Assembly: GCA_036507075.1 (NCBI GenBank)
Contig: DASXQR010000210.1
Coordinates: forward strand, 1-16,636
Direction: 5' to 3'
Origin: Acidobacteriota bacterium
GTDB taxonomy: Bacteria; Acidobacteriota; UBA6911; JACQSX01
DNA length: 16,636 nt
Position numbers and translations under genes: made by a program. The notes under the pieces were generated by a model. That model did no database searches. It saw nothing but the letters and a program-made list of their open reading frames with translations, and was not told where the DNA came from. Below, piece after piece: positions 2 through 16,302 of this stretch (its first letter is position 1; every line of letters begins with the position of its first letter).

Positions 2-895
2 CACGGAAAGCGAAATCGACCTTCGTCAACGACTCGCTACCGCAACGCGCTGGATCATGTGATTGAGTTTGTAGGCGCCGAAACCTCCCTGATGCACTTG
101 GCTGTTAAAGACCTGAACGACTTCCAGCTATTCCGAATCGCAGCGGCCAGCAAACGGACTATTGATTTCGAGATGGATGTCACCAGGTCATTCCTTAACT
201 GGTGCCGGCGAAGATCCTGGGTGCGAGAGAACTGCGCGGATGGCGAACACGTTCAAAGGCTGATGACTAAGAAGGCAAAAAAGGAATCTGAAAAGCGGAT
301 CTTCACCGACGATGAACTGAAGATCCTGCTCGCGCCAGCGGAAGGTTCATACTGGCAGCTCGGTTACATTTTTCAGACACTCTATTTTACGGGTCTGCGG
401 ATCGGCGAACTCGGACACCTTCAGGCCAAGGATATTGACTTGAAAAACCGCCAAATCCTGATTCGCGAAAAGACGATCAAGGTTCCAGTGCTCGACCATA
501 ACCGGACCTGCGTAACGCGGTCCGTTGATTGGCTACCGAAAAATGGGGAAGCCCGTGCTGTGCCGATCGAGCCTCGCCTGGAACCGATCCTGCGCGATTT
601 CCTTTCCCGCCGTGTTGAGAATGTCTGGGGCCTACTTTTCTTGAGTGAGCGGGGCGTGATGGTGACGGATCACTTGAGCCGGGTAATCAAGGGACTGGTT
701 GAAAAGCAAGACGTGGGCTGTCACACATTCCGACACACCCACATTTCGCATGCGCTGAACAGATGGGGCCGGCATCCGTCTGTAGTCCAGAAGTGGGCCG
801 GCCATGCCGACTTGAAGACCACGATGGCATACCTTCATGTCAGTGACGATGATCTTCAGCGGGAGAGCTTAAAAATGGGAGGAGCAAACACATGA
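2..895 (+). CDS. Tyrosine recombinase/phage-type integrase, 5'-truncated by the window edge
   Basis: Catalytic motifs TGLRIGEL (R), PKNG (K), HTFRHT (H-x-x-R), WAGH (H) and TTMAY (Y). The frame is open from base 2 (HGKRNRPSSTTRYRNALDHV...), so the real start lies upstream of the window. The stop is ~80 bp before a tRNA 3' fragment. Confidence 0.93.
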   Translation, partial: HGKRNRPSSTTRYRNALDHVIEFVGAETSLMHLAVKDLNDFQLFRIAAASKRTIDFEMDVTRSFLNWCRRRSWVRENCADGEHVQRLMTKKAKKESEKRIFTDDELKILLAPAEGSYWQLGYIFQTLYFTGLRIGELGHLQAKDIDLKNRQILIREKTIKVPVLDHNRTCVTRSVDWLPKNGEARAVPIEPRLEPILRDFLSRRVENVWGLLFLSERGVMVTDHLSRVIKGLVEKQDVGCHTFRHTHISHALNRWGRHPSVVQKWAGHADLKTTMAYLHVSDDDLQRESLKMGGANT

Positions 896-7127: not shown

Positions 7128-8564
7128 ATGGAATCCCGTCAGATACGAGTGCGATTTGCTCCCAGCCCCACTGGTTATTTGCACGTAGGGGGCGCGCGAA
7201 CAGCGCTGTTCAACTGGCTGTTTGCGCGCAACAAGGGCGGCTTGTTCGTGCTGCGTATCGAAGACACAGATCTGGAGCGATCTTCCGGAGAAATGACCCG
7301 GGTCATTCTGGATTCCCTGCAGTGGCTTGGAATCGATTGGGATGAGGGCCCGTATTATCAGGCCCAGCGATCGCGGTTGCATGCTGAAAATGCGCAGCGA
7401 CTGCTGGAGCAAGGAAAGGCCTATCGTTGTTTTTGTTCTCCAGAGGAGCTGGAAAGAAAGCGACAGACCGCCGCCGAGAAAAAGCAGGCTTGGATCTACG
7501 ATCGCGCCTGCCTGCAATTGGATCAGAAACAGGCGGATGCCAGAGCGCGCGAAGGAATCGCCTCTGTGATTCGGTTTCGAGTGCCCGACAGCGGCGAAAC
7601 CGCCTTCGAAGACATCATTCAGGGCCCGATCCGATTCGAAAATCGGCTGATAGAAGATTTTGTCCTGACGCGCTCCGATGGAATGCCGACTTACCATCTT
7701 TCCGTGGTATCCGACGACATCGAGATGCAAATCACCCACATCATCCGGGGCGCGGATCATATTTCAAATACGCCAAAGCAGGTATTGCTTTACCAGGCGC
7801 TGGGACATCCGGTACCCAGGCTGGGACACCTGCCGCTGATCCTTGGTTCCGATAAGAAGCGACTGAGCAAGCGCCATGGCGCAACATCGGTGGAGATTTA
7901 TCGCGAGCAGGGAATTCTTCCTGAAGCAATGGCGAATTATCTGGCGTTGCTGGGCTGGTCCCCCGGCAGCGGCCAGGAGGTGTTCAGCATTGAAGAGATG
8001 GTGGAGCGCTTCGACCTGTCGCGCATCAACAAGGCCAATGCCGTGTTTGATCCGGCCAAACTCGAGTGGATCAATGCGCAGCACATTCAGAGAATGGAAC
8101 TCGGTGTAATGGCAGCCCGAGTACGCTCCTGGCTGGCCAAAGAAGGAATGCTGGCTGACAGTTTTGCCGTTGATGAAAAGACGATGCAAAGCGCTGTCAA
8201 TCTTCTGCGGTCCCGATGCAAGACATTGAAGGACTTCACCACCTGGGGCCGCGCGTTTTTTGTCGAACAGTTTGAGATTGATCCTGCGGGGCGCGAAAAG
8301 TATCTCAGCAATCCGGCTGCCGCAGCGGCTCTTGCGGATTTGGCCTCTCAATATCAGTCGTTGGAGGAGTTCTCCCTGGAATCGACAGAGAGAGTTTTGC
8401 GCGGGATCGCCGCGGAAAGGGGGTTGAAAGCGGGAGATCTTATTGGCGCTGCCCGAGTGGCCGTGACCGGCAACCCCGTGGCGCCCGGCTTGTTTGAAGT
8501 ACTGCTGTATCTCGGGCGGGAGAGAACGGTGATGCGTCTCAAGAAGGCAGCGGGGAAAGCGTGA
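7128..8564 (+). CDS. gltX: Glutamate--tRNA ligase
   Basis: RVRFAPSPTGYLHVGGARTALFNWL (HIGH), LRIEDTD, CFC...YDRAC Zn-site motif, THIIRGADHISNTPKQ, RLSKRHGA (KMSKS). Full length with an anticodon-binding domain. Confidence 0.97.
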   Translation: MESRQIRVRFAPSPTGYLHVGGARTALFNWLFARNKGGLFVLRIEDTDLERSSGEMTRVILDSLQWLGIDWDEGPYYQAQRSRLHAENAQRLLEQGKAYRCFCSPEELERKRQTAAEKKQAWIYDRACLQLDQKQADARAREGIASVIRFRVPDSGETAFEDIIQGPIRFENRLIEDFVLTRSDGMPTYHLSVVSDDIEMQITHIIRGADHISNTPKQVLLYQALGHPVPRLGHLPLILGSDKKRLSKRHGATSVEIYREQGILPEAMANYLALLGWSPGSGQEVFSIEEMVERFDLSRINKANAVFDPAKLEWINAQHIQRMELGVMAARVRSWLAKEGMLADSFAVDEKTMQSAVNLLRSRCKTLKDFTTWGRAFFVEQFEIDPAGREKYLSNPAAAAALADLASQYQSLEEFSLESTERVLRGIAAERGLKAGDLIGAARVAVTGNPVAPGLFEVLLYLGRERTVMRLKKAAGKA

Positions 8565-10483: not shown

Positions 10484-11176
10484 TTGCCGACTCCACGCCT
10501 TTTCCAGGTTGAGACTGATAAAGCCGGACGCATCTCAGCTTTGCATTATCCCGCAAGTCAGCAGCAAAAACCGGAAACCTTCCTCTTACTTGCCCATGGC
10601 GCGGGCGCCGGTCAGCGCAGCGACTTTATGGTTCGCTTCGCGCAGGGTCTGGCAGAGCGCGGGATTCAAGTCGTCACATTCAATTTTCCCTATATGGAAT
10701 CCGGCAGACGATTACCCGATCCCGGCGACAAACTGGAATCCTGCTACCGTGCGGTGGTTCTGAACGTTCGCCGGCAACTCTCTCCGTCCGGGCCACTGGT
10801 GATCGGAGGAAAATCTCTTGGCGGCCGGATTGCCTCCCAACTGGCGGCAAAGGATCGCGGCATTTCAGAACAGCTTTCCGGGCTGGTTTTTCTTGGTTAT
10901 CCGTTGCATCCGCCGGGCAAACCGCAGCAGCTCCGCGACCGGCATCTGGCAGGCATTCCTGTGCCGATGCTCTTCATTCAGGGCTCGCGTGATGCGTTTG
11001 GGACTCCCGCAGAACTGGAGCCGGTGCTGCAAAAAGTGGGAGATCAGGCAAAACTCTGGGTAGTTGAAGGCGGAGATCACTCGCTCAAAGTGCCGAAGAA
11101 GTCGGCAATGTCTCAGGAGGATGTTTATGAGCGAGCGATGGACGAGATCTGCAACTGGCTAGTTGCAAGGTGTTGA
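10484..11176 (+). CDS. Alpha/beta hydrolase (KANSL3/TEX30-like type)
   Basis: LLAHGAGAG, FNFPYM, GGKSLGGR (nucleophile elbow), GYPLHPPGKP, QGSRDAFG (Asp), GDHSL (His). Start uncertain: TTG at 10484 was chosen because the longer 10388 ORF overlaps the upstream gene and runs through a repeat. Confidence 0.88.
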   Translation: MPTPRLFQVETDKAGRISALHYPASQQQKPETFLLLAHGAGAGQRSDFMVRFAQGLAERGIQVVTFNFPYMESGRRLPDPGDKLESCYRAVVLNVRRQLSPSGPLVIGGKSLGGRIASQLAAKDRGISEQLSGLVFLGYPLHPPGKPQQLRDRHLAGIPVPMLFIQGSRDAFGTPAELEPVLQKVGDQAKLWVVEGGDHSLKVPKKSAMSQEDVYERAMDEICNWLVARC

Positions 11177-11638
11177 TTCGTTGATCACGTCAGCCGTGAG
11201 TTCGCCGTTGGCGTTGATTGTGATGTGCTGGGTGAGATGTATTTGGAAATTCGGAACCTGTCCTGCGCCAATGACATTGACGTGCCGCGTGAAAGTGGAC
11301 TCTACGGGAAGCGCTCGCACATTCAGTTCGTCGTTGTCAGCTTCATTGAAGCGATACGAGGTGCCTGTTACAAGGCCGGTTCCGGAGCCATTAATATTGG
11401 TATGGCTTGCAATGTGAAGACCGCCCGCTTGATCCTCGGTGATCCGGAATTGCAGATGAATGCTCCCCTCCACTGCCACTGTTTCACCATTGCAGCCGAA
11501 AGCGTCAAACCTGATGGGAATGGTTTCATTAATAACAACTTCGGCCTGTGCGGCGGCCGCAAAAAAGGCCAGGGCAATCACTGCCAGCGAAGCCACTTTG
11601 ACAGGCCACGAAAATACAAACCATTTGCTCTCTCTCAC
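11159..11638 (-). CDS. Secreted hypothetical protein, beta-strand-rich, two Cys
   Basis: Strong SD (AAGGAG) before the GTG start; signal peptide ending AQA; alternating polar/hydrophobic strands; 18-bp tail-to-tail overlap with the hydrolase. Confidence 0.78.
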   Translation of the reverse strand: MRESKWFVFSWPVKVASLAVIALAFFAAAAQAEVVINETIPIRFDAFGCNGETVAVEGSIHLQFRITEDQAGGLHIASHTNINGSGTGLVTGTSYRFNEADNDELNVRALPVESTFTRHVNVIGAGQVPNFQIHLTQHITINANGELTADVINESTPCN

Positions 11639-11899: not shown

Positions 11900-11945
11900 C
11901 GACAAAGTTTTGCCGGTGGTGTCAAAATTCTTTTACCGTTTTGAC
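11900..11945. promoter_or_regulatory. Candidate upstream activator sequences for a sigma-54 enhancer-binding protein
   Basis: Imperfect palindrome CGACAAAGTTTTGCCG (11900-11915) and GTCAAAA-N11-TTTTGAC (11921-11945), about 130-175 bp upstream of the -24/-12 element. Confidence 0.45.
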
Positions 11946-12075: not shown

Positions 12076-12091
12076 TGGCATGGTACTTGCT
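12076..12091 (+). promoter_or_regulatory. Sigma-54 (RpoN) -24/-12 promoter
   Basis: TGGCATGGTACTTGCT matches TGGCA(C)N5TTGCW with exact GG-N10-GC spacing. Intergenic, 65 bp before the S8 peptidase start. Confidence 0.8.
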
Positions 12092-12156
12092 TAGTTATTC
12101 TGCGCAATCATCCCAAGGCACGTAAATAACAGAAACCTGACATTAAGGCTGAGATT

Positions 12157-13986
12157 ATGACAAGGGCGTTAAGATCAATCCCCCGAAAGAAGACTTTGGC
12201 TGCGGCATTCCTGCTTGTATTAATTTTCCCTGTCTCGCTTATAACGTCGTTCGGCAGAGTGAGCAGTCCGGAAAGCACCGACGTTCTGGCAAGGCACGAG
12301 CGCAAGATAGCGCCGATACTAAAGGATTATGTAGCTTACGCGGCTCTCAATCCCAGCGTCCAGGCCGAGCTGCCCGTTATTATCGAGGTGAGTCCCGAGT
12401 TTTTCAGCCGCAGTTACACGCCCGACGATCGCGCGGCGCGCAAGGCCGGGATGAACGCGCTTCCTTTAATTAACAGCTACACGGCCAGGTTAACCGCAGC
12501 CCAGATTCGTCTGCTGTTGGAGGCTGCTGAAGTTGAATACATTACCCTGGACGCCGCCATCACTACTTCCACTCTTGGTCCGACCGCGCAGGACATTCCG
12601 GTTGCGACGCTGGGAGGAGACCTGACCTTCTCGCGCGGGCTGGACGGAAGCGGTACCACCGTTGCTATCTTTGATTCAGGTGTTGGCTATCATGCGGACC
12701 TGACCTCCAGGGTTAGGGTTGCTGTCGACTTCACACTGGGAGTCCCCGTAATGAGACCGCTTAACACGGACTCGTACGGGCATGGCACGGCGGTCGCCGG
12801 AATAATCGCGGGAAACGGTCTCAAGTCCGCCGGTTCCCATGCCGGTGTTGCGCCTGCAACGAGCCTGGTCGATATTAAGGTCGTCGGCACCGATGGTTCC
12901 GGCACGACCAGTAATCTGATTGCGGCGATCGACTGGCTGATCCAAAACAAGACACAATACGATGTAAAGGCGGCGAATTTTTCCCTCGGCCATGCGCCAT
13001 TAGATTCTTACACGGTTGATCCCCTCTGTATGGCGGTAGAGCGGCTGGTTTCTTCCGGGATCGTGGCCGTAGTGGCGGCTGGGAACAATGGGAAGTACGC
13101 TCAGTATCCCAAGCTCTGGGGCGGAATTAACAGTCCTGCCAACCATCCCGCCGTGATCACTGTGGGAGCCATTAATACGCGCGGCACTGTCACGCATGCC
13201 GATGATATCGCGACGACCTACAGTTCGCGCGGGCCCACGTTCAAGGATAATCTTTTCAAGCCCGATATTTCTGCGCCGGGAAACCACATTGCTTCCTGTC
13301 TGAAGCCGGGCAGCTATCTTCAGGCTAGGTATCCGCAATTCGCCACTCCAGACTTGCAGTACATCTATCTGAGCGGTTCCAGCCTGGCCACAGGATTTGT
13401 CACCGGTACGGTCGCGCAGATGTTCCAGGCCAATCCCGCCCTCACGCCGAACATCGTGAAGGCTTTTCTGCTTCTTTCAGCAACAAAGCTGCAGCAGCCG
13501 CACCGTCTCGAGCAGGGCAACGGATTGCTGAACAATTACACGGCAGTCCGGTTGGCTGAAGCCGTCAATATGCAGTTGCAGATCCTACCGGACGGCGCGG
13601 TTCCTCCGAGCTGGACGCTGTCGACGCCCGACGGTCCGGAAACAGTCTGGAGCGGTGGAGCGTTTCCGGTCGGAAGTAAGATTCTGATTACTCAGTTGAT
13701 CAACGCGGGCGCCAGCCTGTCCTGGGGCGCCGGCGTGAACTGGACCGGGTCTATTAATCAGAACCAATCCGCCTGGACCGCCGGCCTTCTTGCTCCGGGA
13801 AGTATCTTCTGGTCTTCCGGAATCATCTGGGCCGAAGGAATTGTCTGGGCTGAAGGGATTGTCTGGTCTGAAGGCGTTATCTGGTCCGACGACATCGGCA
13901 CAGGAGACGGAGTAATCTGGTCGGATGGAATTGTCTGGTCCGAGAGTGTTGTCTGGTCTGATCATTCGTTTGAAGATCCGCAGTAG
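12157..13986 (+). CDS. Exported S8 (subtilisin-family, AprX-like) serine peptidase with C-terminal Trp hexapeptide repeats
   Basis: Signal peptide and prodomain (..VEYITLDA); Asp in AIFDSG, His in GHGTAVAG, oxyanion Asn in AAGN, FKPDISAPG, Ser in SGSSLA. Confidence 0.93.
   Translation: MTRALRSIPRKKTLAAAFLLVLIFPVSLITSFGRVSSPESTDVLARHERKIAPILKDYVAYAALNPSVQAELPVIIEVSPEFFSRSYTPDDRAARKAGMNALPLINSYTARLTAAQIRLLLEAAEVEYITLDAAITTSTLGPTAQDIPVATLGGDLTFSRGLDGSGTTVAIFDSGVGYHADLTSRVRVAVDFTLGVPVMRPLNTDSYGHGTAVAGIIAGNGLKSAGSHAGVAPATSLVDIKVVGTDGSGTTSNLIAAIDWLIQNKTQYDVKAANFSLGHAPLDSYTVDPLCMAVERLVSSGIVAVVAAGNNGKYAQYPKLWGGINSPANHPAVITVGAINTRGTVTHADDIATTYSSRGPTFKDNLFKPDISAPGNHIASCLKPGSYLQARYPQFATPDLQYIYLSGSSLATGFVTGTVAQMFQANPALTPNIVKAFLLLSATKLQQPHRLEQGNGLLNNYTAVRLAEAVNMQLQILPDGAVPPSWTLSTPDGPETVWSGGAFPVGSKILITQLINAGASLSWGAGVNWTGSINQNQSAWTAGLLAPGSIFWSSGIIWAEGIVWAEGIVWSEGVIWSDDIGTGDGVIWSDGIVWSESVVWSDHSFEDPQ
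13801..13962 (+). repeat. Coding 18-bp tandem repeat: nine in-register hexapeptides
   Basis: SIFWSS GIIWAE GIVWAE GIVWSE GVIWSD DIGTGD GVIWSD GIVWSE SVVWSD. Confidence 0.95.
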
Positions 13987-14042
13987 GAAAAACGTTGCGG
14001 GTTTAGCCGGCATTCGGTTCGATTTTTGTGGAAAGATAAGCA

Positions 14043-14810
14043 ATGGCTGGGGACGACATGGAGACCAGATTTAAGGCTCCGCCAAGGGAGAACGGGCTTC
14101 CGCATCCGGCAAAGCTTTACGTACTGTGTATTGTCGCTCTGAGCGTACCGGTGCTGGGCTTGAGCGTGTACCGGTCATTTTTCCAGGGGACGGCCTGGGT
14201 ATATTTGGCCGGACTCACGGTTTTTGCCAGCCTTTTTTCCGTTCGTATCCCGCTGCTCCACTTAAAATCCCACTCCTTGACGATTTCAGTGAACGACGCG
14301 TTTGTATTCGTGGCGATTCTGGTGTTCTCTCCCGAAGTGGCAGCGTCGATTGCCGCATTGGAAGGCTTCACGGGCAGCCTGAAATCGGGCGTAAAAAGAA
14401 CTTATAAAAAAGTATTCAATATTGGAGTCCTGTCGCTGGTGACCTTCGTTGTGGGAAGCGTGGTGCTTGAAATGAAGCGCGCCCTGTCTCCGACGCTGGC
14501 CCAAACAAGCTTTCTGCGAACGCTGGGAATTGTCCTGACCGGAGGAGTGATTTATTTCTTGCTGAACTCCGTGCTGGTCGCCTTTGCCATCGCGCTCACA
14601 TCGGGTAAAACCCTTGCCGAGGTATGGCGTCAGAATTTCGCCCTGTTGTGGTGGGCCTACCTGATCAATGCAGGCACCGCAGCGGTAATGTTCTATTATT
14701 TTAAGCCGGTGAATTGGGCGGTCCTGTTGATGGTAATTCCGCTGGCACTGGTTATCTGGACCTCCCGAAAGATCAGCCTCTCCCGCACCCCGCAGGCCGC
14801 TACTTCCTAG
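14043..14810 (+). CDS. Polytopic membrane protein resembling the N-terminal membrane-sensor (MASE9-like) region of HD-GYP/GGDEF/kinase proteins, with no output domain
   Basis: About 7-8 hydrophobic segments; motifs TISVNDAFVFVAILVF.PE.A, KKVFN, YFLLNS.LVA.AIAL...VWRQNF. Alternative start at 14058. The family call is from recollection, not a search. Confidence 0.7.
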   Translation: MAGDDMETRFKAPPRENGLPHPAKLYVLCIVALSVPVLGLSVYRSFFQGTAWVYLAGLTVFASLFSVRIPLLHLKSHSLTISVNDAFVFVAILVFSPEVAASIAALEGFTGSLKSGVKRTYKKVFNIGVLSLVTFVVGSVVLEMKRALSPTLAQTSFLRTLGIVLTGGVIYFLLNSVLVAFAIALTSGKTLAEVWRQNFALLWWAYLINAGTAAVMFYYFKPVNWAVLLMVIPLALVIWTSRKISLSRTPQAATS

Positions 14811-15028
14811 CTAGCCCGAATTATTCACAAAACTTCACCGCCAGGAACGCCAAGAGCGCTAAGAAAAGCGCAAAGGACGGGGGCCGAAACTTGAAGTATG
14901 AAAGCGCCACGAATACGTTTGACGTGGTTGATAACCTTCATACTTCAAGTTTCGGCCCCCGTCCTTTGCGCGCTCTTGGCGTTCTTGGCGTTCTTGGTGG
15001 TGAAGTTTTCTTGAATAATCCGGGCTAG
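14811..15028. mobile_element. 218-bp MITE-like nested hairpin flanked by CTAG at both ends
   Basis: CTAG-CCCGAATTATTCA...TGAATAATCCGGG-CTAG. Inside are 9-nt repeat arms (CACCGCCAGG-AACGCCAAG-AGCGCTAAG), then a perfect 35-bp inverted repeat (14868-14902 and 14937-14971) and a 34-nt loop. Confidence 0.8.
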
Positions 15029-15134: not shown

Positions 15135-15923
15135 ATGCTGAACCGTCTTGAGCGGAAGTTGCGTTATTTTGCCGTCCATGATTTGACTCTATATCTGGTA
15201 GCCGGCCAGGGTCTTTTCTTTGTGATGGGGCTGGTCAAACCGGAAATCCTGGACCGCGTGGTGCTGGTTCCCGCTCTGGTTATCAACGGCGAAGTGTGGC
15301 GGCTGGCGACCTTCGTGTTTTACCCGCCGGTGTCAAATCCCTTATTTGCGGTTTTTACTCTCTATTTCTTCTATTTGATGGGCACCGCGCTGGAAAACCA
15401 TTGGGGAGCGTTTCGCTACAACATCTACCTGCTGATCGCGTACGTGGCGACTATAGCCGCGGCTTTCCTGTTCCCTGCACAGGCGGCTACCAACGTTTAC
15501 ATCGTAGGCTCAGTATTCCTGGCGTTTGCCTATCTTTATCCGGAATTTGTGATTTACCTCTTCTTCATTCTGCCCGTAAAGATTAAATGGATCGCGGCGC
15601 TCACCTGGCTGTTTTACTTTATTAACTTTGCGTTCGGCGCCTGGCAGGCGCGAGCCATGGTGGTCGCATCGGTGGCAAATTTCCTCCTTTTTTTTGGTCG
15701 AGACATAATGCTCCAAATGCGGTACGGAGGCAGAAAGATGCACTGGCAGGCCAGGCAGTTCGCCGAAAGCAATAAGCCGGTCCACGTCTGTGCGGTTTGC
15801 GGCAAGACGGACCTGACGCATCCCGAAATGGATTTCCGCTACTGCGGGCAGTGCCGGGAACGGCATGGATACTGCGAGCAGCACATCCGCAATCATGAAC
15901 ACAAAGTCGACACTGGGGGATAA
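15135..15923 (+). CDS. Derlin/rhomboid-like membrane protein with a C-terminal AN1-like zinc finger
   Basis: GEVWRLATF (WR motif), MGTALENHWG, FAYLYPE..IYLFFILPVKIKW; C-terminal C-x2-C-x14-C-x2-C-x6-C-x2-H-x3-H-x-H. Confidence 0.75.
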   Translation: MLNRLERKLRYFAVHDLTLYLVAGQGLFFVMGLVKPEILDRVVLVPALVINGEVWRLATFVFYPPVSNPLFAVFTLYFFYLMGTALENHWGAFRYNIYLLIAYVATIAAAFLFPAQAATNVYIVGSVFLAFAYLYPEFVIYLFFILPVKIKWIAALTWLFYFINFAFGAWQARAMVVASVANFLLFFGRDIMLQMRYGGRKMHWQARQFAESNKPVHVCAVCGKTDLTHPEMDFRYCGQCRERHGYCEQHIRNHEHKVDTGG

Positions 15924-15939
15924 CCAAACAGGGGTATCT

Positions 15940-16302
15940 ATGTTTAAGGCACTCAATATCGTGATGATAGTTCTGCTCTTGATATCGGTGGGTCTGCAGT
16001 ACAACGATCCGGACCCGATTCGCTGGATGTCGATTTACGGCGTGGCGGCAATACTATCCATTGCCGAGGGAAAGCTCGGCAAAATAGGTGTGATCGCGCC
16101 GGTGGTTGTGGCTGTTGTCGCGCTCCTCTGGGCGGCAATTATTGCTCATGGAATGAAGGCGAGCGTCACCACCCCGGAGCTGTTCCGCCGGATGGATCCC
16201 AACCGGCCGGAGATTGAGGAAGGCCGCGAGATCGGCGGATTGCTGATTGTGGCGGCGTGGATGGTCGTGCTTGCAGTCCGAAGCTATATCCGCCGTAGTT
16301 GA
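15940..16302 (+). CDS. Transmembrane 220 (TMEM220) family protein
   Basis: QYNDPDPIRWMSIY and EEGREIGGLLI signatures; four hydrophobic helices; AGGGGT SD before the ATG at 15940. Confidence 0.85.
   Translation: MFKALNIVMIVLLLISVGLQYNDPDPIRWMSIYGVAAILSIAEGKLGKIGVIAPVVVAVVALLWAAIIAHGMKASVTTPELFRRMDPNRPEIEEGREIGGLLIVAAWMVVLAVRSYIRRS

Follow-up and report, generated by a model that had tools for sequence, protein, structure and literature searches.

Trp-repeat-tailed S8 subtilases paired with MASE9 membrane proteins in Acidobacteriota: a candidate peptide signalling module

We analysed a stretch of 16,636 nucleotides from an Acidobacteriota bacterium (assembly GCA_036507075.1, contig DASXQR010000210.1), hereafter the window, in which the gene of an S8 subtilase ending in tryptophan (Trp, W) hexapeptides is followed by the gene of a MASE9 membrane protein. 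This S8–MASE9 locus lies on contig C210 of genome G000, and other genomes are numbered from G001 onward. A first-pass annotation had described it as a candidate peptide-signal and sensor module. The features of the locus are as follows:

12076..12091, + strand: sigma-54-type -24/-12 box, 81 nt 5' of the S8 start codon
12157..13986, + strand: S8 subtilase gene, 609 aa, with signal-peptide-like N-terminus, prodomain, catalytic domain, folded extension and Trp-repeat tail
12157..12255, + strand: predicted Sec signal peptide, about residues 1-33, with basic n-region and hydrophobic h-region; its cleavage site is a prediction
12646..13509, + strand: S8 catalytic domain, residues 164-451, with D173, H209, N310 and S409
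13552..13800, + strand: folded C-terminal extension of the S8, residues 466 to about 548, an AlphaFold2 block with predicted local distance difference test (pLDDT) 79-93
13801..13962, + strand: eight Trp hexapeptides, candidate signal peptides, [G/S]-hydrophobic-hydrophobic-W-[S/A]-[D/E/S]
14043..14810, + strand: stand-alone MASE9 gene, 255 aa, with modelled S-component fold plus two extra helices and predicted inverted topology, without output domain

The membrane protein proposed downstream of the protease was confirmed: its open reading frame (ORF) starts 56 bp past the S8 stop codon on the same strand, and the product has eight membrane helices and matches MASE9 (PF20972) at 34.7 bits (cut-off 24.3), with no second domain. 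The pairing also recurred among relatives. We surveyed 163 tailed S8 genes, 134 of them with at least 2.5 kb of downstream DNA, together with 41 untailed, distant S8 genes, 18 of them with enough. A same-strand MASE9 gene lay within 2.5 kb downstream of 78 of the 134 tailed genes versus none of the 18 untailed ones, rows that are not independent because kin and a few duplicates (e.g. L027 and L208) are included. Across 61 related genomes, an S8 of this family (at least 200 bits) was found in 24, all of which carried MASE9, and the two genes lay within 5 kb of each other in 20; a further 14 genomes carried MASE9 without such an S8 match. The named relatives are almost all labelled Acidobacteriota. 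Within G000 itself, the four tailed S8 genes (on C210, C62, C133 and C110) all have MASE9 as the next gene downstream and four weaker S8 matches do not, while five of the six MASE9 genes sit at tailed-S8 loci, only that on C228 lying elsewhere.

The window S8 belongs to the S8A peptidases, with a PF00082 match of 154.8 bits (cut-off 21.8), an Asp-His-Ser triad and an oxyanion Asn, all four catalytic positions (D173/H209/N310/S409) being invariant in 87 of 87 aligned relatives. AlphaFold2 folded residues 40-555 with confidence. The intact protease and its eight repeats stood as first described, and its export is suggested by a basic-then-hydrophobic N-terminus, present in 80 of 85 full-length relatives according to a simple heuristic that is not a signal-peptide predictor. 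An acidic residue closes 83% of 249 tail repeats in the close clade, and basic residues lie near the predicted S1 site (H279 in 34 of 35 and K/R313 in 78 of 87; the window protein has H279 and K313). From these two features we infer that the enzyme would cleave after the Asp or Glu closing each repeat; the placement of the S1 site follows subtilisin numbering.

In the tail (W552, W558, W564, W570, W576, W588, W594 and W600), eight Trp units keep a six-residue register with one Trp-free spacer and are encoded by DNA repeats of period 18. Such a tail could have a structural role: as a hexapeptide beta-solenoid or a cross-beta unit, it would anchor the protease in the envelope or matrix, or polymerise it there. 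MASE9 would then sense something else and be a neighbour since cyclic di-GMP (c-di-GMP) controls the protease. The strict register of the window tail and of many Trp-free tails is what a solenoid would show, PF00132 (Hexapep, the left-handed hexapeptide beta-helix) matches a minority of members of two look-alike Atlas clusters (16% and 22%) and also P0097, and the paralogous locus on C110 is under c-di-GMP riboswitch control. The window S8, however, gave no PF00132 match, and AlphaFold2 left residues 560-604 without secondary structure at pLDDT below 50, which is weak evidence as repeats align poorly. Among 60 W tails the strict register was present in only 12 and lost in 48, modal spacing ranged from 6 to 38 and proline occurred in 32, and this loose, proline-containing spacing is polyprotein-like rather than solenoid-like.

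The tail motif was also found outside the protease, in free-standing micro-ORFs of 8-36 codons whose products end in I-[V/I]-[Y/H/V]-W-[T/G/D]-[D/E/N/T]. When 107 micro-ORFs with a ribosome-binding site were examined at W-tailed S8 loci, motif-bearing ones lay within 500 nt past the S8 stop codon in 12 of 91 cases. The background was 11 of 7444 micro-ORFs, seven of them the same S8 loci reached via other loci and four chance-looking. At the DNA level, the pattern matched 22 times across the 61 genomes, with 19 of these matches closed by a true stop and often two or three lying in tandem; the reversed control matched once. Among 27 distinct copies, the choice of synonymous codons varies and each of the three stop codons is used, positions that the pattern fixes being uninformative. 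No micro-ORF product carried a signal peptide.

The division cluster contains a second site, between an ftsL-like gene and a penicillin-binding protein gene, where an 8-codon micro-ORF overlaps or follows the ftsL stop in four of five family genomes. In G001, G002 and G003 its start falls on the ftsL stop. In G000 a tail-like ORF of 17 codons precedes an 8-codon copy, G004 has a decayed version, and G005 and G006 have no micro-ORF at the site. Examples of this ftsL-coupled arrangement are G000:C176 at about 7740-7820 (L245), L248, L256 and L257. Under the structural account the micro-ORFs would be capping strands or decayed tails, yet they have their own conserved motif, ribosome-binding sites and this second conserved site, and we regard a structural tail as unlikely. 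Between the two roles first suggested for the tail, release of peptides and docking onto the membrane protein, the occurrence of the motif in free micro-ORFs favours release, and docking is further disfavoured by pocket loops of MASE9 that are predicted to be cytoplasmic (see below).

Elsewhere MASE9 usually carries an HD-GYP, GGDEF or kinase output in the same protein, as stated in the first-pass annotation. The window copy has no such fused domain and no helix leading to one; its ORF stops after the last helix, and the length of the stand-alone form is equal in paralogs and orthologs. It retains D85, N126, N175 and W195 but differs from the consensus in several further columns. A profile of 90 MASE9 domains matched a single PDB sequence, the energy-coupling factor (ECF) S-component 4hzu_S (E 1e-5), and 14 of the 90 members matched PF07155. 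The top 15 structural matches of the AlphaFold2 model (pLDDT 85.6) were all S-components, with Z from 14.0 to 8.6, the best being NikM 4m5c (Z 14.0, root-mean-square deviation 3.4, 189 aligned). Helical bundles may score high by chance; here the whole S-component family heads the list and the sequence match agrees. Foldseek alone gave no E below 0.001, and the first 14 of the matches listed were all S-components. As modelled, MASE9 has the six-helix ECF S-component fold, with one additional helix at each end.

The orientation of this fold was read from charge. In 90 of 90 sequences, a bias in Lys plus Arg (13.1 vs 2.8) assigns both termini and the loops L1, L3 and L5 to the same side; since the C-terminus bears cytoplasmic enzymes and lies on the same side as the pocket loops, the pocket is predicted to face the cytoplasm. 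MASE9 would thus be inverted relative to S-components and 5TMR-LYT kinases, whose pocket is open to the outside (PMC11109136). The ligand pocket of NikM is occupied by a 9-residue segment of the N-terminus (PMC3945884), so an S-component pocket can hold a peptide. An inward pocket fits both the poorly conserved periplasmic segments of MASE9 noted by Galperin and Chou (bioRxiv 10.1101/2021.11.05.467447) and the leaderless micro-ORF products.

This predicted topology runs counter to sensing on the outside. Without import, peptides might still be recognised from the outside or in the membrane itself, by S-component toppling or a lateral gate, the micro-ORF peptides being exported in an SHP-like manner. 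The S8 is predicted to be exported, S-components do topple (PMC11109136), leader-poor streptococcal SHP peptides are exported by PptAB (PMC7564271), and Galperin and Chou propose binding within the membrane. The positive-inside signature on the pocket loops nevertheless holds throughout the 90 sequences, and the periplasmic loops are short as well as poorly conserved, which leaves this route distinctly unlikely in our view.

The fold also raises the question of whether the stand-alone MASE9 is a peptide transporter, importing or exporting as an S-component on its own. BioY and BtuM, when solitary, transport without needing a motor (PMC11109136), and the stand-alone form, which keeps the four residues named above, emerged in two clades or more. 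On the other hand, the AxxxA motif of helix 1 for EcfT docking is replaced in MASE9 (59 of 90 sequences have Leu as its first residue), the stand-alone protein descends from fused sensors, and it is absent at the closest ortholog; transport appears to us quite improbable. The first-pass annotation had taken the neighbouring protein for the sensor that transduces the signal, and this part of its model was not supported: because the window MASE9 lacks an output domain and is missing at the closest syntenic ortholog, it is probably a modulator, not a transducer.

Candidate transducers are found at the paralogous loci of the same genome. On C133 the order is MASE9-PAS-kinase-receiver, sigma-54 box, S8, stand-alone MASE9, receiver-HD-GYP and receiver-sigma-54 activator, which recurs in G001 as judged by motif tags. 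On C110 two c-di-GMP-I riboswitches are followed by S8, two micro-ORFs and a MASE9-HD-GYP-GAF-GGDEF gene. The window copy and that on C62 look like satellites of the C133 loop, by which they would be regulated. The C110 copy (21527-31295, L003) lies just downstream of ftsA/ftsZ-like genes recognised by eye, and a copy of this type shares a contig with ftsI in G001 and G004.

Several variant loci were noted in the survey. A GNAT acetyltransferase or histone-deacetylase-family gene stands between S8 and MASE9 at L008, L044, L049, L131, L068 and L201-L203, the GNAT cases in the Trp-free clade, where five of 22 gaps of that size were scanned; the interposed genes hint at peptide acylation. Among 30 MASE9-less loci scanned, a sigma-54 activator follows the tailed S8 at six (L034, L050, L076; L040, L055, L212), with tetratricopeptide (TPR) repeats in the activator at three, where it is possibly a soluble peptide receptor. 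G041 and G045 (L216, L217, L220, L222) contain up to 21 S8 matches per genome, often in tandem, and the arrays are followed by apparent double MASE9 proteins without output domain.

For the promoter, the first-pass claim of an exact -24/-12 element was partly upheld. The box at 12076 has the invariant GG at -24 and GC at -12 with correct spacing and one mismatch to the textbook consensus, and rpoN and a sigma-54 activator are encoded in G000. By the window data alone it is not above chance, since three sites with at most one mismatch were seen against 1.48 expected and 37 of 200 shuffles also reached three. Its weight comes from its position being conserved in paralogs and the close clade: a box lies within 200 nt of the start in three of the four paralogs (expected 0.0005 sites per 200 nt), the same box preceding those on C62 and C133, and it precedes eight of 30 close-clade S8 genes with upstream DNA versus seven of 1600 shuffled windows. 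The 22 genes without a box include second genes of tandem arrays. For sigma-70 promoters the window gave one against 2.0 expected, and an Rfam scan of the window returned no match. In a search for an upstream activator motif, the best 16-mer reached 20.0 bits versus 16.9-18.0 in three shuffles. The regions upstream of sigma-54-led S8 genes have a weak palindromic motif in common, at 11901-11916 in the window, which exceeds the shuffles only slightly.

Divergent from the S8 promoter, 11159-11638 (- strand) encodes a secreted-looking 159-aa protein with no Pfam or NCBIfam match, which is kept beside the G001 S8 ortholog at 44% identity. At 14811-15028, a 218-bp inverted-repeat element abuts the MASE9 stop codon; it has dozens of copies genome-wide, with 38 binned places of matches of at least 150 nt, some maybe double-counted. 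We rejected the idea that this hairpin cut the MASE9 gene off, because stand-alone paralogs and orthologs share the same end point. Further along, 15135-15923 (+ strand) encodes a membrane protein that has no family match, bears a Cys/His cluster at its C-terminus and, by eye, resembles a rhomboid protein. Neither this gene nor 15940-16302 recurs at related loci, so we do not count them among the module's parts. A phage-integrase-family gene occupies 59-895 (+ strand) at the contig start.

Taking these data together, we lean slightly towards the following reading: the tail is a multi-copy peptide precursor whose peptides re-enter the cell and bind an inward-facing MASE9 that controls kinase activity or c-di-GMP, with the loop being tuned by the MASE9 that has no output domain. 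After the predicted export, the S8 or another protease would cut behind the acidic residue closing each repeat, and the peptides would return to the cytoplasm via a peptide importer; three PF00496 peptide-type binding proteins are encoded in G000. The leaderless micro-ORF peptides could reach the same MASE9 pocket directly or after export. When peptides bind to fused MASE9 paralogs, c-di-GMP turnover or kinase activity would follow. The satellite copy of the window may be driven by the C133 kinase and sigma-54 activator, and the output-less MASE9 may dampen or tune the loop, acting either as a sink for peptides or as a partner subunit.

A number of observations weigh against this reading. With the tail exported and the pocket facing inward, peptides would have to be imported, and the locus has no gene dedicated to this. 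Pairing is incomplete, as 42 of 91 MASE9 matches have no S8 within 5 kb and 56 of 134 tailed S8 genes have no MASE9 within 2.5 kb. The closest ortholog, G001:C66 (63% identity), has no MASE9 downstream, although it retains the promoter box and the upstream divergent gene. The proposed test of co-variation between repeat unit and sensor clade showed co-inheritance only: for 76 pairs, the MASE9 and S8 trees (FastTree, with several long branches) each have a single switch of tail class (Trp or Trp-free), and S8 and MASE9 distances correlate (rho 0.76), which does not prove co-evolution. Blastocatellia tails have no Trp and resemble hexapeptide beta-helix repeats. Micro-ORFs occur at 11 of 16 long HD-GYP-type sensor loci, at none of 11 stand-alone MASE9 loci and nowhere in the window, their motif differs from the tail motif at two positions, and a stricter version of the pattern was present in seven of 401 phylum genomes, five of them in the same class.

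A broader idea, which we find doubtful as a whole, is that this is a third kind of bacterial peptide signalling, in which protease-borne pheromones are read cytoplasmically by an upside-down vitamin-binder fold, near-identical, ftsL-coupled 8-residue peptides compete for the pocket, and the cell would set c-di-GMP by comparing the signal of its neighbours with how fast it is itself dividing. The MASE9 sensor domain is widespread and has no known ligand or fold; it now has a predicted fold, a predicted orientation and candidate ligands of 6-8 residues, which can be synthesised and assayed on culturable MASE9 carriers. If the circuit is real, it would give the Acidobacteriota, soil bacteria that are abundant and little studied, a peptide signalling circuit with parts unlike those of RRNPPA or Agr/Com systems. 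The 8-codon genes in a cell-division operon are below the usual size of gene callers. New here are the tail-motif micro-ORFs, including the ftsL site, and the modelled S-component fold and predicted inverted topology of MASE9. Our literature searches, whose coverage largely excluded subscription journals, returned no description of the S8–MASE9 pair, the micro-ORFs or a MASE9 fold; the main text of PMC11109136 does not mention MASE, and the MASE9 section of Galperin and Chou names no ligand, fold or protease neighbour.

Finally, we compared the locus with known systems. Cyanobactin PatA/PatG proteases share the S8 fold, and their precursors carry repeated cores. As a model for the window S8, which the first-pass annotation had drawn on, this was discarded: the TIGR03895 score was 22.7 bits against a cut-off of 421, and the window has neither a separate precursor gene nor tailoring genes. 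The nearest solved relative of the protease is ProN-Tk-SP (3afg; E 5e-44 by sequence, 1e-32 by fold), and relatives are labelled 'serine protease AprX' in source records; unlike these Tk-SP/AprX-type S8A enzymes, the window S8 has the Trp-repeat tail, basic residues near the predicted S1 and the tight MASE9 linkage. MASE9 sensors such as T. maritima TM1467 and S. venezuelae HdgA have the same domain with eight helices and the fusions shared by the paralogs, whereas the window copy has no output domain. ECF S-components (NikM/CbiM, RibU, FolT, ThiT) have the six-helix core in common with MASE9, and in the 5TMR-LYT sensor kinases BtsS and YpdA an S-component core serves as receptor, but MASE9 differs from both in its two extra helices, predicted inverted orientation and lack of AxxxA. 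The RRNPPA systems of Bacillota (Rap-Phr, Rgg-SHP) resemble our proposal in an exported precursor matured by extracellular proteases, which can hold tandem peptide copies (PMC11343458), and in peptides that are re-imported and sensed inside the cell (PMC7564271). Membership nevertheless fails because no TPR gene was found among 13 window proteins scanned and the precursor is fused to a protease. The RRNPPA receptor is a soluble TPR protein, whereas the candidate receptor here is a membrane domain of modelled S-component fold, with repeats carried on the protease itself, c-di-GMP enzymes or a kinase/sigma-54 loop as outputs, and relatives in Acidobacteriota.

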